From Candidatus Coproplasma sp. (GTDB lineage: Bacteria > Bacillota > Clostridia > Christensenellales > Borkfalkiaceae): 64,000 bases of DNA. Every line of letters begins with the position of its first letter. The stretch's first letter is position 1. The DNA lies in the NCBI GenBank assembly GCA_051884135.1, contig JBJEVC010000003.1, forward strand, positions 272-64,271, in the 5' to 3' direction. A program made the position numbers and the translations under genes. The notes beneath the pieces are model-generated. The model had not been told where the DNA came from. It worked only from the letters and a program-made list of their open reading frames with translations, and did not search any database. Below, piece by piece: positions 4,447-47,105 of the stretch.

Positions 4447-6051
4447 ATGGAAGAAAAATTGCGCTATCGCAACTATATAAAGGAAAATCGCACAGCAATC
4501 ATCGGGTTTTCTGTGTTGTCGTGCGTCGTTTCGATTTTGGCGGTTGCCTTTGCGTATATGACGAAATTTTTAATAGACTCGGCAACTCAAGGCAAGCCGT
4601 TCGTCATTTTTGCCGTAGTTACCGGCGTTTTAATAATAGCGGAAGTAGGTTTTAAATATCTCTATTCCTACCTTGTAAACCGCAAGATCTACCAAACCGA
4701 AAACGCCATAAAAAAGCAGGCCTTCCTTTCCTATCTTAAAAAGGATTACAGGGATGCGGAGAGAATAGAAGACGCAGACGTGTTAATGCGTTTAACGTCC
4801 GACTGCAGGATAATAGCGGAAGGAGTGATAACCTACGTTCCCGAATTCGTTGGCATGCTTACGAGAATAGTGGCGTCGCTTGCGATTTTATTTATAGTAG
4901 ACTGGCTGTTTGCAAGCTGTCTTTTAGGGGTGGGCATAATCGTCTATTTTGCCACGAAGCTACTCCGCCGCAGAAACAAAACGCTCCACAAAAATGCCCA
5001 GCAAGCAGAAGGGGAAGTACTTTCGTTCTATAAGGAAGGCATTTCCCACTCGTTTTTATTCAAGCTCTTCGGCAACGGCAAGTACGTCAACGAGCGTTGC
5101 GATGAAATACAGACAAAGTATCACACCGCCCGTATGCGCTATGCAAGCTTCAATATTTTCGTAAACACGGGCTTTCTGTTCTTTATGAGGGCTTCGTATC
5201 TCATTGCAATAATCTGGGCGGTATTAGTCATCGTTCAAGGCGGCAGTTGGGGCAACCTGTTTTTAATGGTTCAGCTCATTGCCCAAATCGAAGGTCCATT
5301 CAGCTCCATATCTGGTTTAATTCCCCAATACTACCGCACGTTAGGCAGTATAGAGCGTATTTTTGCGTTAGAAGGCAAGGAAGAAGCAACTCCCATTTCG
5401 ATAACGGAATTTAACTCACCTATAATAGTTGATAATATTTCGTTTTCTTACGATGACGGTCAAACCCCTTTGCAGAACCTTTCGCTCACGATAAACCCCC
5501 ACGATTTTATTGCGATAGTCGGCGGAAGCGGTTGCGGCAAATCGACCCTTTTAAAATGCATAATGGGAATGTACAAGCCATCGCAAGGCAGTGTAACTTT
5601 CGAAGGCAAGGACGTCAGCCTATGCAGTACCCTGTTCTCATACGTCCCCCAGGGCAACTTTTTAATTCCGGGCACGATTAAAGAAAATCTCTGCCTTTTC
5701 TCCCCCGAAGCTACCGATGACGAGATAGAAAAGGTATTGTCTTTAACGATGTTAACCGAAAAGATATCTTCACTCCCTGCGGGGCTAAACAGCTCGGTTT
5801 CCGACTTTGGCGCAGGTCTTTCGGAGGGTGAAGGTCAAAGGCTTTCAATCGCCCGTGCCCTGCTTGTCGACCGCCCCGTTCTAGTGTTGGACGAATGTAC
5901 TTCTGCCCTTGACGAAGTGACCGAAAAGGCGATAATCGAGAATATAGTTTCACTCGGCAAGACGGTGCTTCTCGTTTCGCATAAGTCGGGTGCAATAAGG
6001 TATGCAAGCAAAGTTTTCCGTCTTAAGAAAGAGCAAACGGAGGAACTATGA
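4447..6051 (+). CDS. fused TMD-NBD ABC exporter (no C39 peptidase domain)
   Basis: AAGGGG RBS. N-terminal half has multiple hydrophobic helices. Walker A GGSGCGKST, signature LSEGEGQRLSIARA, Walker B VLVLDECTSALD, H-loop LVSHK. Confidence 0.9.
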   Translation: MEEKLRYRNYIKENRTAIIGFSVLSCVVSILAVAFAYMTKFLIDSATQGKPFVIFAVVTGVLIIAEVGFKYLYSYLVNRKIYQTENAIKKQAFLSYLKKDYRDAERIEDADVLMRLTSDCRIIAEGVITYVPEFVGMLTRIVASLAILFIVDWLFASCLLGVGIIVYFATKLLRRRNKTLHKNAQQAEGEVLSFYKEGISHSFLFKLFGNGKYVNERCDEIQTKYHTARMRYASFNIFVNTGFLFFMRASYLIAIIWAVLVIVQGGSWGNLFLMVQLIAQIEGPFSSISGLIPQYYRTLGSIERIFALEGKEEATPISITEFNSPIIVDNISFSYDDGQTPLQNLSLTINPHDFIAIVGGSGCGKSTLLKCIMGMYKPSQGSVTFEGKDVSLCSTLFSYVPQGNFLIPGTIKENLCLFSPEATDDEIEKVLSLTMLTEKISSLPAGLNSSVSDFGAGLSEGEGQRLSIARALLVDRPVLVLDECTSALDEVTEKAIIENIVSLGKTVLLVSHKSGAIRYASKVFRLKKEQTEEL

Positions 6052-7130
6052 ATTTATTAATAAAAATCATTCGCTCCGTGTTAAACGGCGAAAAGCTCTC
6101 GGTAAAGATAGATAAAGAGCTTCTTGAGATAGCGAAATATCACAGCGTATCGGTATATTTATACCCCTGTATGGATCAGACCGTAACCGAAAAAGAAGTT
6201 GCGGATGAAGTAACGCAAATATATTTCACGGCGTTAAAGCGAGATTTGATTCAGCAGACCGAAAGGGCGGCAATTGAGGCACAGTTTGAAAAAGAGCAAG
6301 TGCCTTTCCTTGCGTTAAAGGGAATGGTAATGAAGTCTTTTTATCCCCAAACGCACCTGCGTACAATGGGCGATATGGACTATCTGATTCCGCCTGAAAG
6401 CTTTTCAAAGGCGTGTAAAATTCTGCACGAACAGGGCTATAAGGCTGAAGAGAATTGTGAACATCATTTAGGCTTCACCAAACCGCCGATAATGCTTATA
6501 GAACTGCACAGGCTTTTAATCACGCAGGACGATATGGGCAGGGCGCTACTTGAAAACGTGTTGACCCGTTGTACTCCCAAGCAGGGGTCGTCTTTCGCCC
6601 TTGAGATGACTGACGAAGATTTTTATCTTCACTTAATGCTCCATTTAATTAAGCATTACGTCTACGGCGGTACGGGCTTGCGCTCGTTTATCGACGTATA
6701 TATCTATTTAAAGGCAAAACCCAACCTTGACAGAGATTATCTTTCTGCTGCGTTTGAGCAAACGGTTTACGCAGACGTCATAGCCCTTGTAGAGCGGTTT
6801 GCAATAGACTTGTTCGACGGCAATCCTTTGGATGAAGAAGAGAAAGAGATGTGTGAAAGGGTAATTATGTCAGGCACATACGGCGTAATATCAAACACGT
6901 CTGAAAAGGAGCTTGCCCAATCGGGAAACTCCACGTTTAAAATAGTAATGCGCAAGCTCTTCCCCACGGTCAGGACGATGAAGGGGTGGTACCCGATACT
7001 TGGCAAGGGTGCAGGCATAATGCTTTTGCCCGTCTTCTATATTTGGCACCCTGTTTCAAGGGTGTTCAGGGTTAACAGCTACCGCCGCACCAAAGAGCTT
7101 ATGAAAGCAAAAAAGAAGAACAAAAAATAA
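6048..7130 (+). CDS. nucleotidyltransferase family protein (uncharacterised NTP_transf_5-like type)
   Basis: ATGA overlap with the ABC gene. Pol-beta-like motif LKGMVMKSFYPQTHLRTMGDMDYLI (G...D-x-D). Lys-rich C-terminus. Confidence 0.75.
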   Translation: MNLLIKIIRSVLNGEKLSVKIDKELLEIAKYHSVSVYLYPCMDQTVTEKEVADEVTQIYFTALKRDLIQQTERAAIEAQFEKEQVPFLALKGMVMKSFYPQTHLRTMGDMDYLIPPESFSKACKILHEQGYKAEENCEHHLGFTKPPIMLIELHRLLITQDDMGRALLENVLTRCTPKQGSSFALEMTDEDFYLHLMLHLIKHYVYGGTGLRSFIDVYIYLKAKPNLDRDYLSAAFEQTVYADVIALVERFAIDLFDGNPLDEEEKEMCERVIMSGTYGVISNTSEKELAQSGNSTFKIVMRKLFPTVRTMKGWYPILGKGAGIMLLPVFYIWHPVSRVFRVNSYRRTKELMKAKKKNKK

Positions 7131-7167
7131 ATTCCCTGCCGTTGTTGCGTAGGGGAATAATTAATCA

Positions 7168-7206
7168 CCGCCGCAGGGGCGAAAGGTCGCCCCTGCGGCG
7201 GTTTCT
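7168..7206 (+). terminator. Rho-independent terminator
   Basis: 15-bp stem ccgccgcaggggcga / tcgcccctgcggcgg with a 4-nt loop, then tttct. Confidence 0.85.
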
Positions 7207-7284: not shown

Positions 7285-7313
7285 TTGACATTATTCATCA
7301 ATAGTGTTAATAT
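7285..7313 (+). promoter_or_regulatory. sigma-A-type promoter upstream of the small peptide gene
   Basis: TTGACA (7285-7290), 17-nt spacer, TAATAT (7308-7313) preceded by TGT (extended -10-like). A direct repeat tttacaaaaa x2 lies at 7261-7281 just upstream. Confidence 0.65.
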
Positions 7314-7358: not shown

Positions 7359-7412
7359 CATTGCACGGTTGCTGGCGCAACCGTGCAATGCCTTCTATTT
7401 GTTTTTATTTTT
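7359..7412 (+). terminator. intrinsic-terminator-like hairpin in the 5' leader of the peptide gene (possible attenuator or end of a short RNA)
   Basis: 14-bp stem cattgcacggttgc / gcaaccgtgcaatg, loop tggc, then a T-rich tract ccttctatttgtttttattttt. Preceded by the perfect palindrome aatggcatatgccatt (7347-7362), which shares 4 nt with the stem. Confidence 0.6.
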
Positions 7413-7438
7413 CCCAAAAATATGATAAGGAGAATGTT

Positions 7439-7588
7439 ATGGAAAAGAAAAAACTCTTTGTTGAGCCCGAAGTGGAAGTCGTTCGTTTTGACGAAAAGGA
7501 CGTCATTACTTACAGTGGGGAACCTTTCACGTCATCAGCTTCCTACGCCATTGACAGCATAAAGGATTTCTTTAATATAGGTGTTTAA
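7439..7588 (+). CDS. 49-aa peptide, candidate RiPP precursor (MEKKKLFVEPEVEVVRFDEKDVITYSGEPFTSSASYAIDSIKDFFNIGV)
   Basis: AAGGAGA RBS 5 nt upstream of the ATG at 7439. N-terminus has an F-x-x-P-x-V pattern like the Y-x-x-P-x-L leader motif bound by PqqD-like RREs. Located between the two enzyme arms. Confidence 0.6.
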   Translation: MEKKKLFVEPEVEVVRFDEKDVITYSGEPFTSSASYAIDSIKDFFNIGV

Positions 7589-7606: not shown

Positions 7607-7972
7607 ATGAGAAAAGGTAACTTAAAACGACTGCTTGTAATTGCGCTTGCACTCGCCCCTATGGCTTTTGCGGCGGCATGCGGTCAGCCAAACAATTCCA
7701 CTGCAGACGGTAACCCTTCAGACATAGTGGATGTTCCTACCGAAGAACCTTCTCAAGAACCTTCCGAAGGTGATCCGACTGAAGAAGATCCGACCGAGGA
7801 AGATCCTTCTCAAGATCCTTCCGAAGGAGATCCTGCTGAAGAAGAACCTTCTCAAGATCCTTCCGAAGGAGATCCTGCTGAAGAAGATTCTTCCGGTGAT
7901 ACGTCTGAAGATAAACCTACAAAACCGTCCCTTCCCGGCGGCTTGGTAGACGGTGGAAATTACGAGTTTTAA
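7607..7972 (+). CDS. acidic Pro/Glu/Asp/Ser-repeat lipoprotein
   Basis: Signal peptide with lipobox (LALAPMAFAAAC), then about three 14-aa EEPSQ[DE]PSEGDP[AT]E repeats. Confidence 0.75.
   Translation: MRKGNLKRLLVIALALAPMAFAAACGQPNNSTADGNPSDIVDVPTEEPSQEPSEGDPTEEDPTEEDPSQDPSEGDPAEEEPSQDPSEGDPAEEDSSGDTSEDKPTKPSLPGGLVDGGNYEF
7742..7890 (+). repeat. tandem ~42-bp coding repeats (about 3 units)
   Basis: The ccttctcaagatccttccgaaggagatcctgctgaagaagaa unit recurs with few changes. It generates spurious ORFs in other frames. Confidence 0.85.
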
Positions 7973-8013
7973 CGGGGAGCTTAACAAACTATAAATATTT
8001 GAGGGAAAATTAT

Positions 8014-10224
8014 ATGAAAACAAAGACAAGGAAATTAATAGCCGCAGTTGCGGCAACCGCCTTGCTCGGCACTGCTGTCGGCGTAGGCGTTTATGCATTA
8101 AACAATTCTACTGAAAACGACTTCGGCTTTAAGGGCACATATTCCCTTAACGCTTTAGCGGATAACGCAGCCGCTTCAACTGTTACTGTTGCAGGTAAAT
8201 CCATTGATACAACTACAACTTTAACTCTTAAATCTTCGGATGCTGAACAGGCTTATACGCTTTTCGTTACAATTGTAGATACCGACGATATGACTGAACT
8301 TGCTGATATTAACGTTGGTTATACTGTTGGCGGAAATACTTATAATGCTCAGGCTTCGGGCTTATCCAACGTTGTTTACAGTTCTCTTACAGTTAATACG
8401 GGTAATGAAGAAGAGCCTACGGCAACAGTTACTGCAGCAGAGCTTGCAACAAGCTTTACTTCAACAATTACAAGCCCTAAACTTGTAATTGCAGAAGTTG
8501 AAGGTGATTTGAGTGCATCAACTTCTGAACTTACAATTACAGCTGCATTAAGCGCAAGCAATGTTAATGTTAAAGTAACTGGTCAGTGTGATGCTACAGC
8601 AGGCACGGATACCATAAAAGATGCTTTTGGTCAGGAATTAACTATAGCTAGCAGTAATGCAACTTTAGGTGCAGATCCTTTCTATGTAAATACAGCAAAG
8701 ACCGTTTATTTTGAAGGTGAAGGCAAAACCTTCCGTATTCCTGCTAGTGGATATCTTCAGACAACCGGTGCAGAAGCTCCTTTATATGTTGACTTAACCG
8801 ACTATGAAGAGGGTGTTGATATGTTGCTTACTATTAATGCAAGTTCAACCGGTAGTTCAAATGTAGGTCATTTGAATAGATATCTAATAATAAAGGGCAA
8901 TGGTCAGGATTTAGAATCCCAGTCATTAAACGTATCGGGTAGTGGAATAGATTGTAAGTTTATCGTTAAATCTGGTTATAAGTATCAAATTGACAATAGT
9001 AACGGTTTGAGAATATACAGCATTAGCTATGCTACAGCAACTGAAACTGATGCTGCTGACGTTTTAACCCAAGTAACCGTTACCGTAAAGGATAAGTTAG
9101 GTAATACTATTGCAACCATTACGGAAGATTCAACTCTTACCCGTCCTACGTTATACGTTGGTAGTGCATTGACTTCTGCTGGCGCAACTGCCACAATTAC
9201 TGCCGCATTGCCTGAAAACGCTACTTGGGACAAAAATATTTATACCGATGAAGCTTGTACAAAGCCATATAGTGAAATGACTCGTTTGACTGGCGACATA
9301 ACACTTTATGTTGACGTTGCTTATCCTACCGACGTTGTTGTAAATTACGGTGGTGGAGCAAAAACTATAACAAAGACTATTGGCTCCGAGCTTACGTTAG
9401 ACGAAATTGTAGCTGCCCTTGCAATTACTGTTGCAGATAATCAAAAGCTCGTATGCAAAGTTGAGAGCGCTGAAGTAACGTTGCCCATTACAGTTGTTGC
9501 AGGTTTAACTATAGATGCAGAATTAGTTACAGCTACAACAATCACTATAACCTATACTGATGCTGATGAAGTTGTTACAAACGTTGGCGAAGTAAAGATT
9601 ACTGCCCAAACTGACATGACCTATGCTGAATTAGCCGCTTGCGTTACGACTATTCCTTCAGGTATGGAGCTTTCAGCTATTACTGTAGATGGTAAAAAAT
9701 ATGAATCAGGTTATGCTGAATTAATAACAATTGATGCAGAATGTATCATAACCGCAACGTTTGTTGCTGCTTCGGCAAAGACTGATACGATAGATATAAG
9801 TACATTAGAAAGTTCTTATGCTGCAGATTCTACAGTATATGACGGTACACTCTTCACGATGTCAACCAAGATTAAACTAACGAAAAAGAGCGATTATATT
9901 GTTACCAATTCAGGTAAAACAGATAGTAGTAGTACTCCCATAGTCTTCACAGCTAAACAAAATATTACATTATCTTTAAAGGCTAATGTGGGTAATTCAG
10001 GTTTGACTGGCAGTTTTACTGATACTAACAATGTTATCTATCAAGTCTATAATAGTGATGGAACAGCGAGTGGAGATGCAGTGTCAACGGTTACAACAAA
10101 AACCTCAACATTTATTGATCTTAATATTACTTTGGAAGCAGGGCAGTATGTAAATCTGTATTTTACAACTAGTTCATCTTCTACTCGTTATTTAGGTTTC
10201 TCATCAATTTCTGCAACAACCTAA
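8014..10224 (+). CDS. large Thr/Ala/Ser/Val-rich secreted or membrane-anchored protein of unknown function
   Basis: GAGGGA RBS before the ATG at 8014 (the track start at 7999 is TTG). N-terminal signal/anchor KLIAAVAATALLGTAVGVGVYA. Two related beta-rich modules, ending ...LRIYSISYA and ...RYLGFSSISATT. No LPXTG motif. Confidence 0.8.
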   Translation: MKTKTRKLIAAVAATALLGTAVGVGVYALNNSTENDFGFKGTYSLNALADNAAASTVTVAGKSIDTTTTLTLKSSDAEQAYTLFVTIVDTDDMTELADINVGYTVGGNTYNAQASGLSNVVYSSLTVNTGNEEEPTATVTAAELATSFTSTITSPKLVIAEVEGDLSASTSELTITAALSASNVNVKVTGQCDATAGTDTIKDAFGQELTIASSNATLGADPFYVNTAKTVYFEGEGKTFRIPASGYLQTTGAEAPLYVDLTDYEEGVDMLLTINASSTGSSNVGHLNRYLIIKGNGQDLESQSLNVSGSGIDCKFIVKSGYKYQIDNSNGLRIYSISYATATETDAADVLTQVTVTVKDKLGNTIATITEDSTLTRPTLYVGSALTSAGATATITAALPENATWDKNIYTDEACTKPYSEMTRLTGDITLYVDVAYPTDVVVNYGGGAKTITKTIGSELTLDEIVAALAITVADNQKLVCKVESAEVTLPITVVAGLTIDAELVTATTITITYTDADEVVTNVGEVKITAQTDMTYAELAACVTTIPSGMELSAITVDGKKYESGYAELITIDAECIITATFVAASAKTDTIDISTLESSYAADSTVYDGTLFTMSTKIKLTKKSDYIVTNSGKTDSSSTPIVFTAKQNITLSLKANVGNSGLTGSFTDTNNVIYQVYNSDGTASGDAVSTVTTKTSTFIDLNITLEAGQYVNLYFTTSSSSTRYLGFSSISATT

Positions 10225-10253
10225 TTTAATAATTTTATTAGATTGAGCTATGA

Positions 10254-10287
10254 AACGGCGGTGCTTCGGCACCGCCGTCTTATTTTG
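10254..10287 (+). terminator. Rho-independent terminator
   Basis: Stem aacggcggtgc / gcaccgccgt(c)t around loop ttcg, then tattttg. Confidence 0.85.
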
Positions 10288-10310
10288 CCCCAACACAACC
10301 CGTCATTGCG

Positions 10311-10527
10311 CCCGTCCCCCCCAACCGTCATTGCGAAGCGGCTTATAGCCGCTGCGGCAATCCCAGACTCCCAACCACCTAACCAATTCTTAAATATTCT
10401 CACCACATTTATTATTTATTCATTTTTCTTTATTCTTTATTCTTTTAGCATATTGCTCCGCCCAAAACCCCGACGAGATTGCCACGCACTCCTTGCAGTC
10501 GTGTCTCGCAATGACGGTGGGGGGGGG
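10311..10527. repeat. MITE/REP-like element with imperfect ~50-bp inverted termini and an AT-rich core
   Basis: Left end is cccccccaaccgtcattgcgaagcggc..gcggcaatccc. The right end, reverse-complemented, reads cccccccaccgtcattgcgagac..gtggcaatctc. Core atttattatttattcatttttctttattctttattctttta (10407-10447). Confidence 0.7.
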
Positions 10528-10557
10528 TAGATAAAGAAATCGGTTTGAAAAATTTTT

Positions 10558-11016
10558 TCAAACCGATTTCTTCTTAAATATTCTTTTAACCTTATTTATA
10601 ACCTTCTTGAACGGAATTCGTATAAACGCCGTCAGCTTCCAAAAAAGGGAGTAGGACTTATAGCCGAAACTATTTTTAACTTCAATCTCCTTTCCGTTGC
10701 GCCAGATTCGCTCTAAAACGCCCAAAATCTTGTCCTTTGGTACATACTCTTTAGCAACGCAATTATCGCCCCTGATGACGTAAATATCGCCTTTAATCTT
10801 AAGCACTCGGTGCAGAACGCACACTCTGCCGTCTGCGCCTTCATACAGTGCAACGTCGCCCTTTTTCGGCAAGCCTTTAACAATCATCACGGTGTCCTTG
10901 CCCTGCCGAAGCAGTGGGAGCATGCTCACGCCCGTAACTTTGGTTATGTGGTAGCCGTATTTCTCCAGATCTTCTCTCGGGGATAAGGCTATAATTTCGT
11001 CCATATCACTCATCAA
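10558..11016 (-). CDS. S24/S26 family Ser-Lys peptidase (signal-peptidase/LexA-like fold)
   Basis: VTGVSMLPLL nucleophile motif and a downstream LHRVLKIKGD Lys motif. 11-nt overlap with the upstream PqqD-like gene. Confidence 0.75.
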   Translation of the reverse strand: MMSDMDEIIALSPREDLEKYGYHITKVTGVSMLPLLRQGKDTVMIVKGLPKKGDVALYEGADGRVCVLHRVLKIKGDIYVIRGDNCVAKEYVPKDKILGVLERIWRNGKEIEVKNSFGYKSYSLFWKLTAFIRIPFKKVINKVKRIFKKKSV

Positions 11017-11263
11017 TAAAGCCGTTCTTCTTTAAAAGTTCCACCGTATTTTTTACAGCTTGCGTTGCCTGCTCATTTGTAGCTTCATATTCGCTCAAAA
11101 CTGCCGCAACGAGCTCTTCTTCGGTTGCGCCGTTTTCAAGTTTCTTCCAAAGATAAGCGGCAATTTCGTTCATTTTAATTACGCCTGAAAAGTCGCTCCC
11201 TACAGGAATAGCAACAACCTGACCGTCAAGTTCTTTTAAGATAAAACCCTTTTTAATTTTCAT
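11006..11263 (-). CDS. PqqD family protein (RiPP recognition element-like)
   Basis: 85 aa from the ATG at 11263, with a GAAGGGGG RBS. Small winged-helix-like protein: ...LNEIAAYLWKKLENGATEEELVAAVLSEYEA...AVKNTVELLKKNGFI. 4-nt ATGA overlap with the kinase-like gene. Confidence 0.75.
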   Translation of the reverse strand: MKIKKGFILKELDGQVVAIPVGSDFSGVIKMNEIAAYLWKKLENGATEEELVAAVLSEYEATNEQATQAVKNTVELLKKNGFIDE

Positions 11264-11958
11264 AATTTTAACCCCCTTCTCGCCACGATAGCCGCTTCGT
11301 CGCTGATAGTACAGCTCATCTCGTAGCACTTAACCTTTTTTGAAAGTTCATTCAATAACTCTGTTAGCCTTAATCTATGCTCGGTTTCTTTAGGGAAGGA
11401 AACCTGTAAAAAGGTTTTCATAAACGCTTCATCAGCCGAAATTTGCCTGATTTCGTTTTTCTCTCCCCGTTTTAAAAAAACTATTGCCTTTAGCGGTGCT
11501 TTGCCGTTATAGCCTGCGTTTTCCTTGCCCTGCCAGGGCGAACCGTATGCGGTAAATTCCTGCCCGTCATAGTGCAAAATCGGCTTATCACCGTTTAAAA
11601 CCTTGCAGTCTTTAAAATTTTTAAGCCAAAGCGCAATGTGTGTGCTCTTGCCGACGCCGCTCTTTGCCGCAAACGCAACCGCCTTGCCGCCCACTTCCAA
11701 AGTGGCAGAGTGGAACAAAAAACGGTCGAAGTCTATCATCTTTTCCGCAACGTTCCTGCATACGCAGGCATTTTCGCAGTACTGCTCAACCCTTAATTCG
11801 GAAAGTTCCATCTCTTTGGCAATTTCTTCATCGGTGCATTTTGCCGTAAATGCCGCCTTACCTTCCGAAAGATACCCTTCAACGAACCTGTCGTTTATCT
11901 CATAGCGGAAGTCAAGGTCAATTAATAAATCTGCAATTTTTACAGTAACCATATTCAA
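11260..11958 (-). CDS. HPr kinase C-terminal-domain-like P-loop protein
   Basis: FHSATLEVGGKAVAFAAKSGVGKSTHIALWL...LNGDKPIL matches the hHAs..v.G.avl..G.SG.GKST ... DD pattern of HprK-related kinases. Confidence 0.7.
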   Translation of the reverse strand: MNMVTVKIADLLIDLDFRYEINDRFVEGYLSEGKAAFTAKCTDEEIAKEMELSELRVEQYCENACVCRNVAEKMIDFDRFLFHSATLEVGGKAVAFAAKSGVGKSTHIALWLKNFKDCKVLNGDKPILHYDGQEFTAYGSPWQGKENAGYNGKAPLKAIVFLKRGEKNEIRQISADEAFMKTFLQVSFPKETEHRLRLTELLNELSKKVKCYEMSCTISDEAAIVARRGLKL

Positions 11959-12087
11959 CTTTTATTATATAACATTACCCCTTAAAAGTCAATTCCCTAC
12001 TCTGTCCGCCGCAACAATTTTGCCACTTAATTAACAAAACCCGTCAATAACAAATAAGACCCTGACGATAAGTCAAAGTCTTATTTG

Positions 12088-12172
12088 TGGTGGGAGGAGG
12101 TGGATTCGAACCACCGAAGTCGGAGACGTCAGATTTACAGTCTGATGCATTTGGCCACTCTGCAATCCGCCC
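12088..12172 (-). tRNA. tRNA-Tyr (GTA)
   Basis: Cloverleaf read by eye: anticodon loop ctGTAaa, long variable arm, T-arm ggtgg-ttcgaat-ccacc, encoded CCA. One C4:U69 acceptor mismatch. Confidence 0.8.
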
Positions 12173-12209
12173 AAAATATTAAGTTTACCGATAAACGGGG
12201 GTAGGTGTG

Positions 12210-12285
12210 TGGAGCTGGTGACTGGACTTGAACCCGCGACCGGCTGATTACAAATCAGCTGCTCTACCAACTGAGCTACACCAGC
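12210..12285 (-). tRNA. tRNA-Thr (TGT)
   Basis: Acceptor gctggtg/caccagc, D-arm tagctcagttggtagagc, anticodon loop ttTGTaa, encoded CCA. Confidence 0.85.
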
Positions 12286-12307
12286 AAAACCGCTTAATAA
12301 TTTTAAG

Positions 12308-12383
12308 TGGTGCCTTGGGGTGGAATCGAACCGCCGACATAAGGATTTTCAGTCCTCCGCTCTACCAACTGAGCTACCAAGGC
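12308..12383 (-). tRNA. tRNA-Phe (GAA)
   Basis: Acceptor gccttgg/ccaaggc, anticodon loop ctGAAaa, T-loop ttcgatt, encoded CCA. Confidence 0.85.
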
Positions 12384-12418
12384 GTATTTAAGCACCTTTT
12401 AAAGGTGCTTAAGAAGTT

Positions 12419-12495
12419 TGGCGACCCGAAACGGGCTCGAACCGTCGACCTCCAGCGTGACAGGCTGGCGCTCTAACCAACTGAGCTATCGGGCC
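12419..12495 (-). tRNA. tRNA-Asp (GTC)
   Basis: Acceptor ggcccga/tcgggtc, anticodon loop ctGTCac, T-arm gacgg-ttcgagc-ccgtt, encoded CCA. Confidence 0.9.
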
Positions 12496-12539
12496 AAATA
12501 TTTTAAAACGTTGTCGTTATAAAAACTATTAAATTTAAT

Positions 12540-12558
12540 TGGTGGGCCTTCACGGACT
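12540..12558 (-). repeat. 19-nt duplicate of the 3' end of the adjacent tRNA(CAT) gene (T-loop end, T-stem, acceptor, CCA)
   Basis: tggtgggccttcacggact is identical to 12658-12676. The upstream sequence does not form a tRNA. Confidence 0.85.
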
Positions 12559-12657
12559 ACTTCGCACTTTCGTGCTCGTGCCACTGCAAGCAGTGGGGCG
12601 AACCTGCGCTTCGAGTCAATCTATGTGCCGACAAAAGCTAAACACAAATAATTTAAG

Positions 12658-12734
12658 TGGTGGGCCTTCACGGACTCGAACCGCGGACCAATCGGTTATG
12701 AGCCGACCGCTCTAACCAACTGAGCTAAAGGCCC
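12658..12734 (-). tRNA. tRNA with CAT anticodon (elongator Met or Ile2; not initiator-like)
   Basis: Acceptor gggcctt/aaggccc with G1-C72, anticodon loop ctCATaa, no GGG/CCC anticodon stem, encoded CCA. Confidence 0.85.
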
Positions 12735-12954
12735 TCATCAACGCAAAGTGATTTCCACACAACGCTTGTATATAATAATATAACCAGCATTTTTTGTCAA
12801 GTGTTTTTTAAACGTATTTATTTAATTTTTAAAAAATTTTTGTCTTGTTAAAAATAGACCTTTTCGACCAAAAAAGAGTTAAAAACCCATATTTAACTAA
12901 AATATTCGTTTCTTGCAAATGTATTATAAAGAAAAACTTCAGGGGCGTAGGTCA

Positions 12955-13266
12955 ATGAAAATAATTGAAGGTATCGCAGGCGGAGCGCTTTATATAAAGC
13001 TCGTCGGTGAGATGGACGAATACTCTGCCCAAGCCGTACGCATACGGTGCGACAAACTAATCGAGAGCAATGCAACCGTTAAAAAGATAGTAATCAATCT
13101 TTCGGAAGTTGAGTTTATGGATTCTACGGGAATAGGCTTTCTTATTGGCAGGTATAAAAAGGCTTCAAGGCTTAATATTCCCTTATACGTTGAATCACCC
13201 AACGTTGCTGCGGACAAAATTTTAAATTTAAGCGGTATATATTCGCTTATACCGAAGGCGGAATAA
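12955..13266 (+). CDS. spoIIAA: anti-sigma F factor antagonist SpoIIAA (STAS domain)
   Basis: ATG at 12955 after AGGGG. The EFMDSTGIGFLIGRY phospho-Ser motif region. Followed by spoIIAB and sigF. Confidence 0.9.
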   Translation: MKIIEGIAGGALYIKLVGEMDEYSAQAVRIRCDKLIESNATVKKIVINLSEVEFMDSTGIGFLIGRYKKASRLNIPLYVESPNVAADKILNLSGIYSLIPKAE

Positions 13267-13268
13267 AG

Positions 13269-13706
13269 ATGACGAAGAACTATTTAAAGCTACAATTTTA
13301 TTCTCTTCCGCAAAATCAAGCGTTTGCAAGGGATGCTGTCGCTGCGTTTTGCCTTGAATTAAACCCCACCATCTCCGACTTGTCCGACGTAAAAACCGCC
13401 GTATCCGAAGCTGTGACAAACTGCACCGTGCATGCGTACAGGGGCAATTTAGGCATAATTACCATTGAATGCGAAGTTCAAGAGGAATGTGTACATATAA
13501 AGATAAGCGATACGGGTAAGGGCATACCGGACGTTGAAAAAGCCGTTCAGCCCTTCTATACCACGCTACCTGAAGATGAACGTTCCGGCATGGGCTTTAC
13601 TATTATGCAGACGTTTATGGACGAGTTCAGAGTCAGTTCGGTTCAGGGCGAAGGTACCGTAGTCTATATGGTTAAATGCTTTAAACCGGAAGTAGAGAAT
13701 GCTTGA
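13269..13706 (+). CDS. spoIIAB: anti-sigma F factor SpoIIAB (Ser kinase)
   Basis: HATPase motifs EAVTNCTVHAY, DTGKGIPD, ERSGMGFTIM. Operon position supports the call. Confidence 0.9.
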   Translation: MTKNYLKLQFYSLPQNQAFARDAVAAFCLELNPTISDLSDVKTAVSEAVTNCTVHAYRGNLGIITIECEVQEECVHIKISDTGKGIPDVEKAVQPFYTTLPEDERSGMGFTIMQTFMDEFRVSSVQGEGTVVYMVKCFKPEVENA

Positions 13707-14424
13707 CCAAACAACTTGTAATAAACTGATACGCAAGGCAAAGGCAGGGGACAACGACGCAAAGGAACGCCTGCTCTGTGAAAACACAAATCTTATCAAA
13801 TCAATCGTTAAGCGTTACCTTAATAAGGGGGTAGAGTACGACGATTTGTTTCAGCTTGCTTCAATGGGGCTTTTAAAGGCGATAGCAGGCTTTGACGAGA
13901 GTTATAACGTCAGGTTCTCGACCTATGCCGTACCTATGATTTCGGGTGAGATTAAACGCTTTATGCGTGACGACGGGAGCATCAAGGTATCCCGTGCGAT
14001 AAAGGCGCAGGCGAAGCAGATTAATGAGTTCGTTGAGCAATATACGGCAGCTAACGGCGTTCAGCCGTCTATAAAAGCGATATCCGAAAAATTCGGTATG
14101 CCGCAGAGCGAAGTGGTATTCACTATGGGTTCGTCAAGAATGCCAGTATCGATTTATGCGCAGGGAGATTATAAGGACGAGAAGTCCAAACTACTGCTGG
14201 ACAAGCTCCCCGTAGACGACAAGCAGGAAGAGCTTTTAGACGTGTTAGAGCTCCGTTCGGCAATAGCAGACTTGCCCGACAGGGACAAAAAGGTCATAAT
14301 GCTGCGCTACTTCAGGGATATGACGCAGGCGGAAGTGGCAGAAAGTCTTGGCGTTTCGCAGGTTCAGGTGTCACGCATCGAGAGCAGGATAATGCAGACG
14401 TTCCGCAACAAATTGACGGGTTAA
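13699..14424 (+). CDS. sigF: sporulation sigma factor SigF
   Basis: FSTYAVPMISGEIKRFMRDDGSIKVSR and TQAEVAESLGVSQVQVSRIESRI. Overlaps the spoIIAB stop. Confidence 0.9.
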   Translation: MLDQTTCNKLIRKAKAGDNDAKERLLCENTNLIKSIVKRYLNKGVEYDDLFQLASMGLLKAIAGFDESYNVRFSTYAVPMISGEIKRFMRDDGSIKVSRAIKAQAKQINEFVEQYTAANGVQPSIKAISEKFGMPQSEVVFTMGSSRMPVSIYAQGDYKDEKSKLLLDKLPVDDKQEELLDVLELRSAIADLPDRDKKVIMLRYFRDMTQAEVAESLGVSQVQVSRIESRIMQTFRNKLTG

Positions 14425-36343: not shown

Positions 36344-36487
36344 TTTAAGCAACAACTTTTTTAAGGAGCAGACTATAATTCTGCTCCTTAATATTATGTA
36401 ATTTACAGGGCTGTCCGTTTTTGCGGCGTGCCCAATCTTTATTTTTAAGGCGTAGGCTTTTGCGCCCATTTACGGTTGATAAATAAT

Positions 36488-37819
36488 ATGGTTCACGTTT
36501 TCAAGTATAAAAATTACAATTATATATTCGATTCGGGTAGCGGCAGTTTACACGAATGTGACGATAAGACCTACGACTATCTTGCAAATACTTTGGGTCA
36601 AAGCGTCGATATTTCCTATCTTTCGGAAGATGAAAAAAAGGATATTGAAAAGGATATTTCGGCTTTAAAGTCGCAGGGGCTTTTATTTGCGCAGGAGACA
36701 AAATCCCGCCCTGTAAAGTCAAACGAAGTCAAGGCGCTTTGCATTCACATCTGCCACGACTGTAATCTTCGTTGCCGCTATTGCTTTGCCGATGAAGGCG
36801 CTTACCACTCCGCCCGTGAGTTTATGAGCGAAGAAACCGCCAAAAAGGCAATCGACTTTTTAATTGAAAACAGCGGTCATAGAAAGGTGTTGGAAGTCGA
36901 TTTCTTCGGCGGTGAGCCTTTAATGTGTCTTCAGACCATTAAAAACGTCGTCGCTTACGCCAAGGAGAAGGCGGCTCAAAAGGGCAAAAAGTTCCTGTTT
37001 ACCACGACTACTAACGCCCTGCTTTTGAACGATGATGCGATTGAATTTTTCAACCAAGAGATGGAGAACGTCGTTCTCTCGCTCGACGGAAGAAAGGAAG
37101 TTCACGACGCTATAAGAAAGACTGTAAACGGCAAGGGGAGCTTCGATTTAGTCATCGACAATATCAAGAAGTTTGTCGCTTCAAGGGGCGATAAGCACTA
37201 CTACGTCAGGGGTACTTACACGGCTAAAAATCTCGACTTTGCAAAGGACGTATTATTCCTTGCCGATAACGGTTTCGATTCCATTTCAATGGAACCTGTC
37301 GTAACCGACATCGACGATCTGGCAATAAAGGAAGAGCATCTGCCCGCTATTTTAGCCGAATATGAGAATCTCTGCGACGAATATCTCAAGAGATACGAAG
37401 AGGGGAACGGATTCAACTTTTTCCACTTCAACGTCGACTTGGAAGGCGGACCCTGTCTTTCAAAGAGAGTATCGGCGTGCGGTGCGGGCAACGAATATTT
37501 CTCGGTTGCGCCCAACGGCGATTTATATCCCTGCCACCAGTTCGTTGGCGACGAAAAATTTAAGATGGGCAACGTATTCGAAGGAAAGCTCAACTCCGAC
37601 ATTCGCTGCGTATTTGCCGAGAATTGCCTGTTCACGAGAAAGAAGTGTGAGGACTGCTTTGCAAAGTACATCTGCAGCGGCGGTTGCAGCGCAAACAACT
37701 ACCACTTTATGGGCGATTTAAACGAACCGTATACCATCACCTGCGAGATGATGAAAAAGAGAGTGGAGTGCGGTATGCACGTTCTTGCCCGTAAAAAAGA
37801 GTTGACAAGCAAAGAATAA
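36488..37819 (+). CDS. SCIFF peptide maturase (radical SAM/SPASM thioether-forming enzyme)
   Basis: CNLRCRYC radical SAM cluster motif. SPASM Cys clusters CGAGNEYFSVAPNGDLYPCHQF and CEDCFAKYICSGGCSANN. Start may instead be TTG at 36476. Confidence 0.9.
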   Translation: MVHVFKYKNYNYIFDSGSGSLHECDDKTYDYLANTLGQSVDISYLSEDEKKDIEKDISALKSQGLLFAQETKSRPVKSNEVKALCIHICHDCNLRCRYCFADEGAYHSAREFMSEETAKKAIDFLIENSGHRKVLEVDFFGGEPLMCLQTIKNVVAYAKEKAAQKGKKFLFTTTTNALLLNDDAIEFFNQEMENVVLSLDGRKEVHDAIRKTVNGKGSFDLVIDNIKKFVASRGDKHYYVRGTYTAKNLDFAKDVLFLADNGFDSISMEPVVTDIDDLAIKEEHLPAILAEYENLCDEYLKRYEEGNGFNFFHFNVDLEGGPCLSKRVSACGAGNEYFSVAPNGDLYPCHQFVGDEKFKMGNVFEGKLNSDIRCVFAENCLFTRKKCEDCFAKYICSGGCSANNYHFMGDLNEPYTITCEMMKKRVECGMHVLARKKELTSKE

Positions 37820-45731: not shown

Positions 45732-47105
45732 ATGTTTGAATACTACAACTGTGAATGGCTTCTGCCCGAGATTATGGACGTTATTCGTCTGTTCGATGCG
45801 GAAGACGAAGTCTTTGGCTATCACTTTGAATATTCCGCCGGAAACTACTTTAACTGTATAGAGTACGGCGGAAATTTTTACGACTACAAAAATACCGTTT
45901 TTACGGAAGATGAGATAGAGTTTAAACGCTACGCAAAGCGGTTTGCAAAGCTTTCGTTTTATAATCTTCTCTCTGAAATAAAGGGGATAAAAATGCCCTA
46001 CGGTGCCCTTACGGGTATACGTCCTACAAAGCTTGCGTATATGGAAAAGGAAGCGGGCAGGGACTTTAAACAGCTTTTTACGGAGTGTGGCGTGGATAGA
46101 CAGAACACCGCTCAAGTCGAAAGAATTTTGCAGGTTCAACAGCCCTATTACGATAATAAAGGCGGTCAGGATTTGTTCGTATCGCTGCCTTTTTGCCCCA
46201 CTAAATGTGAATACTGTTCGTTTATAACGGCACCCATTTCTTCCACAAAAAAGTACATTGACGACTACGTTTCGAGCGTTGAAAAGGAGCTTATTTCCGT
46301 CAAGCCTTTTCTTTCAAATATCAAGAGTATTTATATCGGGGGCGGAACGCCTTTTGCGGTCGAGATCAGGCATTTGGAGCGTATATATGCCGCAATTAAC
46401 GCACTTTCGCTGCCTGAATGCGAGTACACCGTAGAGGCCGGCAGACCCGACACCTTCACCGAAGAAAAATTAAAGTTAACCAAAGATTTCGGTGTTACGA
46501 GAATTTGTATTAACCCCCAATCGTTTAAGAATGAAACGCTCGTCAAAATCGGCAGAAAGCACACCTGTGCCGATATATACAAAGCCTTCGATATGTCCCA
46601 TAAATACGGCTTTGATATAAACGTCGATTTAATAGCGGGGCTTGCGGACGAATCGAAAGACGACTTTGCTCAATCGCTCAAAAAGGCAATCGAGCTCAAT
46701 CCTGCAAATATTACGGTGCATACGCTCTCGCTCAAGGCAGGTGCAAAACTGAAAGAGAATTGCACAAGGCTGTACGTCGACGGGATAGGGGAGATGATTA
46801 AGCTCTCCCGTCAGATGCTCTCTCAAGCAGGGTACAGACCGTACTATATGTACAGGCAAAAGTATCAGGCAGGCGGCTGGGAGAACTGCGGCTGGGCAAA
46901 AGAAGGGAAGGAGTGCGTCTACAACATCGACGTTATGGAAGAAATTGCCGATAACGTTGCGGTGGGCGCAAACGCCATTTCCAAAAAGCTGTTCGACGGC
47001 GGAGAGAGATTGGAGAGGTGCGCATCTCCCAAGGATATACCAACCTATATTCAGAAGGTTGATAAAATAATAGCGGATAGAAACGGGCTGTTCGGTAAAG
47101 AATAA
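45732..47105 (+). CDS. HemN-like radical SAM protein (HemZ type)
   Basis: FCPTKCEYCSF CxxxCxxC motif and an N-terminal extension typical of HemZ-annotated proteins. Confidence 0.75.
   Translation: MFEYYNCEWLLPEIMDVIRLFDAEDEVFGYHFEYSAGNYFNCIEYGGNFYDYKNTVFTEDEIEFKRYAKRFAKLSFYNLLSEIKGIKMPYGALTGIRPTKLAYMEKEAGRDFKQLFTECGVDRQNTAQVERILQVQQPYYDNKGGQDLFVSLPFCPTKCEYCSFITAPISSTKKYIDDYVSSVEKELISVKPFLSNIKSIYIGGGTPFAVEIRHLERIYAAINALSLPECEYTVEAGRPDTFTEEKLKLTKDFGVTRICINPQSFKNETLVKIGRKHTCADIYKAFDMSHKYGFDINVDLIAGLADESKDDFAQSLKKAIELNPANITVHTLSLKAGAKLKENCTRLYVDGIGEMIKLSRQMLSQAGYRPYYMYRQKYQAGGWENCGWAKEGKECVYNIDVMEEIADNVAVGANAISKKLFDGGERLERCASPKDIPTYIQKVDKIIADRNGLFGKE

Follow-up and report, generated by a model that had tools for sequence, protein, structure and literature searches.

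Background

The Linear Polyphosphorylated Peptides (LPPs) were described by Popov et al. (Nat Commun, 20 May 2026, PMC13381572), who arrived at them through signal peptidase I (SpI) enzymes of the archaeal type encoded beside RiPP recognition elements (RREs; RiPP, a peptide made by the ribosome and modified after translation) in Bacillota. The class was defined from about 126 Bacillota clusters, mostly from Bacilli, and its core set comprises the SpI peptidase LppS, the RRE protein LppB, the HprK-like kinase LppK, the NTP-transferase LppN and the MsbA-like pump LppD (PMC13381572). Here we describe a relative of this system in a stretch of 64,000 nucleotides from Candidatus Coproplasma sp. (contig JBJEVC010000003.1), referred to below as the window, in which a small open reading frame (ORF) at positions 7439-7588 is, with a probability that we put at about 0.82, the precursor gene of a phosphorylated RiPP of linear form that a Clostridial version of the LPP pathway would make.

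The lppAKBSDN cluster belongs to Paenibacillus alginolyticus DSM5050, and LPP precursors in general are 35-200 aa long, with the leader consensus YxxPxVLxHQxIxFETxxS and variable C-termini (PMC13381572). LppK polyphosphorylates core Ser3 of the precursor LppA, and LppS (catalytic residues S29, H68 and D93), which requires LppB, cuts after T(-1) and tolerates substitutions at core positions 1-5; for LppN, no activity was seen in the heterologous host (PMC13381572). In the crystal structure of LppB with LppA, D70 of the RRE is hydrogen-bonded to the Tyr(-16) hydroxyl, and the kink that the leader makes at its Pro is fixed by N33 (PMC13381572). The final product of the pathway and its biological role are still unknown; the paper makes no mention of Clostridia, and the precursors of its few Clostridial entries are given as 'ND' (PMC13381572).

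A second group of described systems consists of the phosphorylated lasso peptides. In the Bsf system, the leader residues Y(-17), P(-14) and L(-12) bind the B1 protein, position -2 is Ile, and core Ser3 is phosphorylated by BsfK, a kinase stimulated by the RRE (PMC10368454). Dependence on the RRE, or stimulation by it, is therefore common to LppK and BsfK (PMC13381572, PMC10368454). In pseudomycoidin, the nucleotidyltransferase PsmN (PF14907) adds hexoses to the phosphoserine (PMC6993621).

In this work, the window ORF and its neighbours were compared with these systems and with related loci from other Clostridia. As a result, we report that the window system is a deeply divergent Clostridial variant of the LPP pathway, a kind of system known since May 2026. 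The assignment rests on the genes present, on the folds and catalytic motifs of their products, on the register of the leader and on the co-variation between leader and RRE. An earlier note on this DNA, made from the sequence without database searches, had proposed a candidate RiPP precursor whose leader is of the lasso style and recognised by the RRE but whose core is not of the lasso kind, and this proposal is upheld by the motif spacing, by the RRE co-variation and by the match to the LPP gene set.

Results and discussion

The precursor gene and its leader

The ORF starts with the ATG at 7439 on the forward strand and ends with a stop codon that closes at 7588, and its product of 49 aa is MEKKKLFVEPEVEVVRFDEKDVITYSGEPFTSSASYAIDSIKDFFNIGV. 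Its parts, under the register derived below, are as follows.

7427-7433, + strand: Shine-Dalgarno sequence AAGGAGA, read from the sequence, 5 nt 5' of the ATG and kept in loci L001, L002 and L005
7439-7507, + strand: predicted leader, residues 1-23 (MEKKKLFVEPEVEVVRFDEKDVI), from the register of 92 family members, the analogy with LppA and BsfA, and the RRE co-variation
7508-7588, + strand: predicted core, residues 24-49 (TYSGEPFTSSASYAIDSIKDFFNIGV), with the stop codon; the Ser26 codon is at 7514-7516

A protein identical to this product has been annotated, as hypothetical, in an NCBI metagenome-assembled genome of Candidatus Coproplasma (Clostridia), and 17 more homologues share 67-82% identity with the window peptide, which gives 18 close homologues including the identical one. 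In their alignment, residues 1-26 are near-invariant, the middle part is hypervariable and the C-terminal Y..IKDFFNI is kept; the versions of 75-79 aa are over-extended start calls that read through the upstream hairpin. Across the 26 leader codons of four Coproplasma loci, 39 synonymous and 13 non-synonymous differing positions were counted (both totals are sums across pairwise comparisons of the four loci), which points to purifying selection on the translated ORF. Judged by this conservation of its sequence, the ORF is a real conserved gene and no chance reading frame.

The comparative set comprised 80 loci centred on homologues of the window kinase, from Oscillospiraceae, Acutalibacteraceae, Lachnospiraceae and other lineages, including Ruminococcus flavefaciens Y1. 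A hidden Markov model (HMM) of the leader, run against all of their small ORFs, settled on 14 peptides from 13 loci with a wide gap in E-value between the weakest match (1.9e-5) and the next candidate (5). The matched peptides share the pattern MKKxYxxPEhEVhxFxxEDIIxxS, which is followed by unrelated sequence. In the window the leader HMM has one match; additional precursor copies were sought in the long uncalled gaps of L001 and L002, where each locus proved to hold a single copy, and no match was found at the N-terminus or in the interior of the ORFs above 200 aa in the fetched loci. The window peptide matches no family in Pfam or NCBIfam.

For the register analysis, the invariant Ser of 92 family members was set at core position +3, so that S26 of the window peptide becomes Ser3 of a core that reads TYSGEPF...IGV. 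Ser occupies this position in 91 of the 92 peptides and Thr in the remaining one. Every peptide has D at -3 and V or I at -2; position -12 is L, V, I or M in 86 and position -14 is P in 82, while position -17 is F or Y in 90 peptides and W in none. The residue two before the invariant Ser is Thr, Cys or Ala in 83 of the 92, and the residue after it is Gly in 36 and otherwise often E, P, N, L or D. In the window leader, F7, P10 and V12 fall on the RRE-binding positions and D21-V22-I23 forms the junction; the spacing F7-x-x-P10-x-V12 is that of the [Y/W]xxPx[LVI] motif of lasso and LPP leaders. The cores of the family are acidic, aromatic and rich in Pro, with hardly any Cys.

By analogy with LppA and BsfA, the window product is an LppA-type precursor of a RiPP, with residues 1-23 as the predicted leader and residues 24-49 as the predicted core. 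Cleavage would most likely fall between I23 and T24, and the likely target of the kinase is the invariant S26, that is, core Ser3.

Several claims of the earlier note can be set against these results. The peptide sequence and the strong Shine-Dalgarno sequence that it reported are confirmed. So is the absence of Asp or Glu at core positions 7-9 and of a C-terminal Ser: the window core has no such residue at positions 7-9 in either register, and in the family these features occur in 21 and 1 of the 92 peptides, respectively. The gene had been thought to lie below annotation thresholds, which its presence in the NCBI assembly contradicts. Two further points have to be revised, for T24, which had been compared with the Thr(-2) of lasso leaders, corresponds by analogy with LppA and BsfA to core position +1, with the Ile/Val-type residue V22 at -2, and the TSSAS stretch offered as a set of kinase targets is hypervariable among the homologues, in contrast to the invariant S26. 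The check that had been suggested, a search for small ORFs with the leader motif near homologous operons, found them in 13 of the 80 kinase-centred loci.

Co-variation of leader and RRE

The RRE gene lies downstream of the precursor gene on the opposite strand.

11006-11263, - strand: discrete PqqD-type RRE, 85 aa (LppB-like); Pfam PqqD, E=5e-15

Its homologues are likewise of 85 aa, and it matches a Clostridial RRE from cluster 4 of the published sequence similarity network (SSN) with E=9e-16. N32 of the window RRE is the equivalent of LppB N33, and this Asn is kept in 60 of the 61 RREs aligned. At the equivalent of LppB D70 the 61 RREs have Asp (44), Ala (13), His (2) or Gly (1); the window RRE has Ala, which fits the Phe of its leader.

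This column varies together with leader position -17. All seven loci with Phe(-17), which come from at least three lineages (the window, L001, L002, L005, L044, L079 and L081), have Ala at the D70 position, and all eight loci with Tyr(-17) have Asp (seven) or His (one). The pairing thus holds in 15 of 15 loci, including those in which the peptide is encoded 5-9 kb from the RRE, with the counts being phylogenetically non-independent. Read from aligned sequences, this co-variation is the strongest in-silico evidence that the peptides are ligands of the RREs. The natural change from Tyr/Asp to Phe/Ala also gives independent support to the leader recognition seen in the published crystal structure, and the residue in the D70 column predicts which clusters use Phe leaders.

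Enzymes of the cluster

The remaining enzymes are encoded on both sides of the precursor gene.

4447-6051, + strand: MsbA-like ABC exporter, 534 aa (LppD-like); Pfam ABC_membrane and ABC_tran
6048-7130, + strand: PF14907 nucleotidyltransferase (NTase), 360 aa (LppN/PsmN-like); Pfam NTP_transf_5, E=1.1e-42
10558-11016, - strand: SpI-like (SipW/Sec11-type) Ser/His leader peptidase, predicted, 152 aa (LppS-like); motifs of homologues and NCBIfam
11260-11958, - strand: HprK-fold P-loop kinase, 230-232 aa (Pfam ScmC, PF27840; LppK-like); NCBIfam and AlphaFold 2 (AF2) model

Since the gene set of the window is the defining core set of the LPPs, the system is assigned to the LPP type. The best NCBIfam matches of the ABC exporter are CydC and MsbA (E about 1e-58), all under the equivalog cut-offs, and its gene adjoins the NTase gene in the Coproplasma loci as a conserved pair. 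The NTase translation contains a GDMD (DxD) motif.

The peptidase matches NCBIfam sigpep_I_arch with E=6.8e-7, which is under the family cut-off. Its motifs GxS31MxP, H69-R70 and G83-D84-N85 are invariant in 61 homologues and, to judge from the sequence, are the Ser/His signature of the ER/archaeal (SipW/Sec11) signal peptidases. This assignment replaces that of the earlier note, which had taken the enzyme for an S24 (LexA-type) peptidase; it is of the SipW/Sec11 type, with S26-like Ser/His catalysis. No transmembrane segment lies N-terminal of the catalytic Ser, and in view of this missing membrane anchor the peptidase is predicted to be cytoplasmic. A profile of the 61 Clostridial peptidases scores 64.8 bits against LppS, with S29 and H68 of the latter aligned with the catalytic residues, and 180 bits against a Ruminococcus SpI from SSN cluster 9, a cluster left unanalysed in the LPP paper; the window peptidase itself shares 37% identity with this protein (E=3e-17).

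For the kinase, NCBIfam matches to HprK_rel_A and ScmC are weak, and a PDB sequence search with the kinase profile, like one with the peptidase, gave P-loop noise or nothing. The AF2 model (pLDDT 95.5) has its top PDB matches in HprK/P (1kkm, E=4.7e-7) and phosphoenolpyruvate carboxykinase (PEPCK). H83 and the SGxGKST P-loop are invariant, and the spacing from this His to the P-loop Lys is that from H148 to K169 in the lasso kinase BsfK. The label of an LppK-like kinase rests on this modelled HprK/P fold and on the conserved His and P-loop.

Proposed pathway and its weighing

In the pathway that we propose, the 85-aa RRE would take up the leader as an extra beta-strand by way of F7, P10 and V12 and present the peptide to two enzymes. 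The HprK-fold kinase would phosphorylate the invariant Ser26, possibly several times, and the cytoplasmic SipW-type Ser/His peptidase would cut off the leader, most likely between I23 and T24. The PF14907 NTase may then decorate the phosphate, as PsmN does with hexoses, and the MsbA-like ABC transporter would export the core of 26 residues. We infer the phosphorylation at S26, the I23/T24 cleavage, the chemistry of the NTase and the export by analogy with the described systems.

A number of observations weigh against this assignment. The match of the window RRE to LppB is remote (BLASTP, E=5e-5), pairwise BLASTP of the window peptidase with LppS gives no alignment, and the Clostridial leader HMM scores the LppA leaders at -1.0 and 2.9 bits, that is, leaves them unrecognised. 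Between Y/F and the invariant Ser there is one residue more than in LppA, and D-[VI]-I stands at the junction in place of F-E-T; the longer spacing and the D-V-I junction together mean that the cleavage site may differ from that of LppA. In the kinase, an invariant N122-G-D124-K-P motif (the window and 23 homologues) replaces the catalytic DD of BsfK and HprK, and this substitution for the Asp-Asp pair may, going by the sequence, reflect an altered catalytic arrangement. Finally, a precursor is recognisable within 10 kb in only 13 of the 80 kinase-centred loci, and four peptide-centred loci with long flanks (L087, L089, L091 and L092) have no enzymes within about 10 kb.

The junction in particular leaves room for a variant of the same pathway, in which Ser26 is the P1 residue of the cleavage site and the kinase target lies elsewhere in the core. 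The Ser followed by Gly would then resemble the Ala-Gly and Cys-Gly sites of LexA and UmuD, or the Ser would be the small -1 residue that signal peptidases prefer; the peptidase is indeed of the signal peptidase type, Gly follows the Ser in 36 of the 92 peptides, the residue two before it is usually small (83 of 92), and D-V-I is unlike the F-E-T of LppA. We regard this variant as unlikely. The Ser is often followed by E, P, N, L or D, both of the studied relatives have their phospho-acceptor at Ser+3 with cleavage two residues earlier, the core subfamilies have no further conserved Ser or Thr in common, and LppS is tolerant of substitutions at core positions 1-5. Phosphorylation at Ser26 with cleavage at I23/T24 is therefore the reading that we follow below.

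Distribution of the family in Clostridia

Homologues of the kinase number in the hundreds, at 35-47% identity, in uncultured Clostridia, and all of them carry the Pfam domain ScmC (PF27840); a kinase scan of species-representative genomes gave at least 595 confirmed matches. The conserved operon core in the kinase-centred loci consists of the genes for kinase, RRE and peptidase, in this order, often followed by the ABC exporter and sometimes with the NTase, and a peptidase was found in 57 of the 80 loci. In L041, L056, L069, L051, L073 and L080 the peptide gene precedes the kinase gene by no more than about 1.5 kb, on the same strand and sometimes with one gene between; in L041, L056, L069, L051, L080 and L093 it stands immediately before the kinase-RRE-peptidase operon or within it; and in a locus from a sample collected from the peptide side the order is NTase, peptide, kinase (L093). 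Three other contigs of the latter sample (L094, L095 and L097) are too short to give gene context.

The precursor itself was traced in two ways. A word-indexed search returned about 80 significant clusters of peptides, none of them with a name or a Pfam domain, and an exhaustive profile search of 1.84 billion representatives returned 8,957 clusters at E<=0.001, counted at 50% identity. The leader motif F/YxxPx[LVI]...D-[VI]-I-x-x-S thus recurs in about 9,000 peptide clusters. Almost all of the top 150 census matches are of 31-66 aa and have the same motif. The match P0242, a repeat protein of 377 aa with seven copies of PDEDVVTASGPP, is probably a false positive, so the tail of the 8,957 clusters may hold some noise. 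None of the listed or sampled family members has a name or a Pfam domain in public data.

Three census members (P0241, P0251 and P0313) combine the same leader with a long Thr/Gln/Asn-rich linker and a C-terminal segment rich in Tyr and Gly (...GKTYYVDENGVYWDL...); their length of 105-120 aa fits the range of 35-200 aa given for LPP precursors.

In the cultured Ruminococcus flavefaciens Y1 (L072), a complete kinase-RRE-peptidase-ABC-NTase operon is found at 9983-14298. No precursor could be recognised within 10 kb of it, and the precursor genes presumably lie at some other place; this organism is a possible experimental model.

These numbers describe a much larger and sequence-divergent LPP branch in uncultured gut and rumen Clostridia, with at least 595 kinase matches and about 9,000 precursor clusters, and the window supplies the missing precursor family of this branch. 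The leader HMM would allow annotation pipelines to name thousands of hypothetical small ORFs.

Gene order and regulatory elements of the window

On the forward strand, the order in the window is ABC exporter, NTase, terminator, promoter-like site, hairpin, peptide, lipoprotein and a secreted protein of 741 aa; the operon for kinase, RRE and peptidase converges on it from the reverse strand, with the genes for peptidase and RRE overlapping (10558-11016 and 11006-11263). The elements not yet given are as follows.

7167-7202, strand unassigned: G+C-rich hairpin of 16 bp, from a terminator scan; the likely end of the ABC-NTase operon
7285-7313, + strand: promoter-like TTGACA, 17-nt spacer, TAATAT, with TG extension; consensus scan 10/12, a pattern match only
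7359-7412, + strand: hairpin with U-tract in the 5' untranslated region of the peptide gene, from a terminator scan; candidate attenuator or terminator
7607-7972, + strand: acidic low-complexity lipoprotein, 121 aa, with the conserved tail KPSLPGGLVDGGNYEF; lipobox AAAC; starts 18 bp past the peptide gene
7999-10224, + strand: secreted or anchored protein, 741 aa (probable start 8014), from the ORF list; its membership in the system is uncertain
11964-11992, - strand: promoter-like TTGACT, 17-nt spacer, TATAAT, upstream of the kinase-RRE-peptidase operon; consensus scan 11/12, a pattern match only

The window shares the hairpin at 7359-7412 with L002 and L005, three of its pairs showing compensatory changes, and L001 lacks it; an Rfam scan assigned the hairpin to no family at threshold. 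It may be a transcription attenuator that controls expression of the precursor. The lipoprotein is conserved in Coproplasma in its position and tail, and the 741-aa protein over its N-terminal part of about 175 aa only (BLASTP); a Pfam scan of both gave no match. The same block of genes recurs in other Coproplasma contigs, which is weak evidence by itself because the flanks are syntenic.

Neither the cluster nor the ten largest other ORFs of the window, which are housekeeping genes, yielded a cyclase of the Asn-synthase type or a B2 protein of the transglutaminase type.

The spacer between the convergent operons (10279-10557) and an uncalled gap of L002 (8900-9400) translate to look-alike artefactual ORFs, for instance one of 95 aa at 10243-10530, which suggests a dispersed repetitive element rather than genes. 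Two radical SAM proteins are encoded far from the cluster, at 36476-37819 (followed by a 528-aa protein without a Pfam match) and at 45732-47105, and have no obvious connection with the peptide system.

Giant secreted proteins and small lipoproteins

In 13 loci from outside Coproplasma (L008, L044, L047, L051, L056, L068, L069, L079, L087, L089, L091, L092 and L096), the peptide gene is preceded, at a distance of 1-29 bp, by the gene for a Sec-type protein of at least 570 and up to 1,908 aa, and in another (L073) a protein of 2,676 aa ends 295 bp upstream of the peptide gene. In L087, L089, L091 and L092 the peptide gene follows 17-22 bp after a secreted protein of 1,225-1,550 aa (the protein of L092 runs off the contig, which covers 578 aa of it). 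In L044, L079, L056 and L069, one strand encodes the enzymes, the giant protein and the peptide, contiguously or nearly so. Outside Coproplasma the precursor thus usually stands just after the giant protein, whereas the window has the order peptide, lipoprotein, 741-aa secreted protein. This association of precursors with giant proteins is unreported in the LPP paper (PMC13381572).

A C-terminal region of 200-340 aa is common to most of the giants, which form two groups, each with a different subfamily of peptide cores. Motifs such as ALLxYG..QxYF occur in one group, and in most of the related proteins the last element is a helix of the ALYxY type; a Pfam scan of the C-terminal domain gave no family. 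The giants of L056, L051 and L047 have no detectable similarity to the others.

Small acidic low-complexity lipoproteins are encoded directly upstream of the kinase gene in 12 loci (L019, L028, L035, L036, L043, L047, L050, L053, L057, L069, L071 and L075). Their tails are short, conserved and aromatic, such as GG[ST]DPYVEDIF, or KPSLPGGLVDGGN[FY] in Coproplasma. In L069 (9211-9312 and 9437-9943), the core sequence GELPFVPAE nearly equals the tail IELPFVPAF of the lipoprotein encoded next. The rule that the core repeats a lipoprotein tail was rejected in general, as it holds in L069 alone among the loci tested. Motifs like (D/E)LPF(V/I)P recur in many unrelated cores (P0226, P0273, P0280 and P0287).

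These associations raise the question of whether the peptide is no RiPP at all and acts as a small partner (a chaperone, an anchor or a regulator) of the large secreted proteins with which it is co-transcribed, its resemblance to a leader being incidental. The 13 loci with a peptide gene 1-29 bp after a secreted protein, often of more than 1,000 aa, the four among them that have no modification enzymes within about 10 kb, and the position of the window peptide at the head of an operon with a lipoprotein and a secreted protein would all agree with this idea. It is quite improbable, however, given that the match between Y/F of the leader and the RRE pocket is perfect even for peptides 5-9 kb from the RRE, that the spacing of the leader motif is exact and the gene adjoins kinase operons elsewhere, and that the large proteins are Sec substrates, whereas a Sec signal is missing from the peptide.

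Both readings could hold together if the mature phosphopeptide acts extracellularly on the large proteins. For the RiPP precursor proposed here, one could imagine that the LPP-type phosphopeptides of gut and rumen Clostridia are functional partners of giant surface proteins, with a phosphorylated and possibly glycosylated core, acidic and aromatic and often with a (D/E)LPF(V/I)P-like motif, that would bind or modify their shared C-terminal domain; we offer this as a tentative and still rather doubtful suggestion. The exported core might also act with the small acidic lipoproteins, for example as a ligand in anchoring, release or assembly. If true, a partnership of this kind would reveal the still-unknown biological role of the LPPs. 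The recurrent coupling to giant secreted proteins, along with the small acidic lipoproteins, is a concrete lead to function, and the coupling to the giants is the most promising one.

Comparison with known systems

Three groups of described systems can be compared with the window. The SipW/Sec11 signal peptidases I share with the window peptidase the GxSMxP box of the catalytic Ser, the HR box with His as general base and the GDN box. They differ from it in three respects, as the window enzyme has no N-terminal transmembrane anchor, is encoded with an RRE and, by analogy with LppS, would act on a leader peptide and not on a Sec signal.

The phosphorylated lasso peptides paeninodin, pseudomycoidin and Bsf (Bradymonas) have in common with the pathway proposed for the window an RRE-bound [Y/W]xxPxL leader, a PF14907 NTase, an ABC exporter and an HprK-type kinase that is stimulated by the RRE and acts on a linear precursor, and the register of BsfK, with Ser3 and Ile(-2), is the same as in the window family. 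The lasso spacing Y(-17)xxP(-14)xL(-12) is matched when Ser is set at +3, a feature that LPPs have too and that is non-diagnostic alone. The N-terminal half of the Clostridial leader HMM aligns to the paeninodin-type leader MKKEWLKPELEVL with 11.6 bits. The differences are more numerous. No macrolactam synthetase and no Cys protease B2 were found in the cluster or the ten largest other ORFs of the window, and Asp or Glu is not conserved at positions 7-9; leader removal would, by analogy, fall to a Ser/His peptidase; the kinase has N-G-D where theirs have DD; and position -2 is V or I (92 of 92), not Thr. Paeninodin further differs in its C-terminal Ser acceptor, its WxxP leader and the Gly in the pocket of its RRE, where the window RRE has Asn. 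That the peptide is a lasso precursor, with the genes for cyclase and B2 at some other place in the genome, is hardly credible, since the paeninodin-like N-terminal half of the leader, the accessory kinase, NTase, RRE and ABC genes shared with the paeninodin, pseudomycoidin and Bsf clusters, and the weak matches of two among 17 family members to NCBIfam lasso_cyano (E=0.02, in a scan at E<=10) are set against the failure to find a cyclase or B2 in the cluster or among the ten largest other ORFs, a dedicated Ser/His leader peptidase in the place of B2 in 57 of 80 loci, Asp or Glu at core positions 7-9 in 21 of 92 peptides only, and RREs with the LPP-typical Asn where those of paeninodin have Gly.

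The closest likeness is to the LPPs. The window has the ABC exporter, the NTP_transf_5 protein, the PqqD-type RRE, the HprK-related kinase and the SpI-type peptidase, and no cyclase was found in the cluster or the ten largest other ORFs; the precursor is short, with a variable core and a conserved leader that has F/YxxPx[LVI] and an invariant Ser three residues past a conserved junction; the RRE has Asn at the N33 position; and the peptidase is homologous at the profile level, with its Ser and His aligned. The full leader consensus of the LPPs is matched in part, given the extra residue in the spacing, D-V-I in place of F-E-T and the scores of -1.0 and 2.9 bits that the Clostridial leader HMM gives to the LppA leaders. 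Within this likeness, the Clostridial branch has a character of its own. Its hosts are Clostridia of uncultured gut and rumen lineages rather than Bacilli. Phe often stands in place of the leader Tyr, with the matching change from Asp to Ala in the RRE. The cores are acidic, aromatic and Pro-rich, whereas the LppA core is basic and rich in G, N, P and K. The genes in the window are split over two convergent operons, and the Clostridial precursors are usually linked to giant secreted proteins, where the LPPs are linked to capsular polysaccharide loci.

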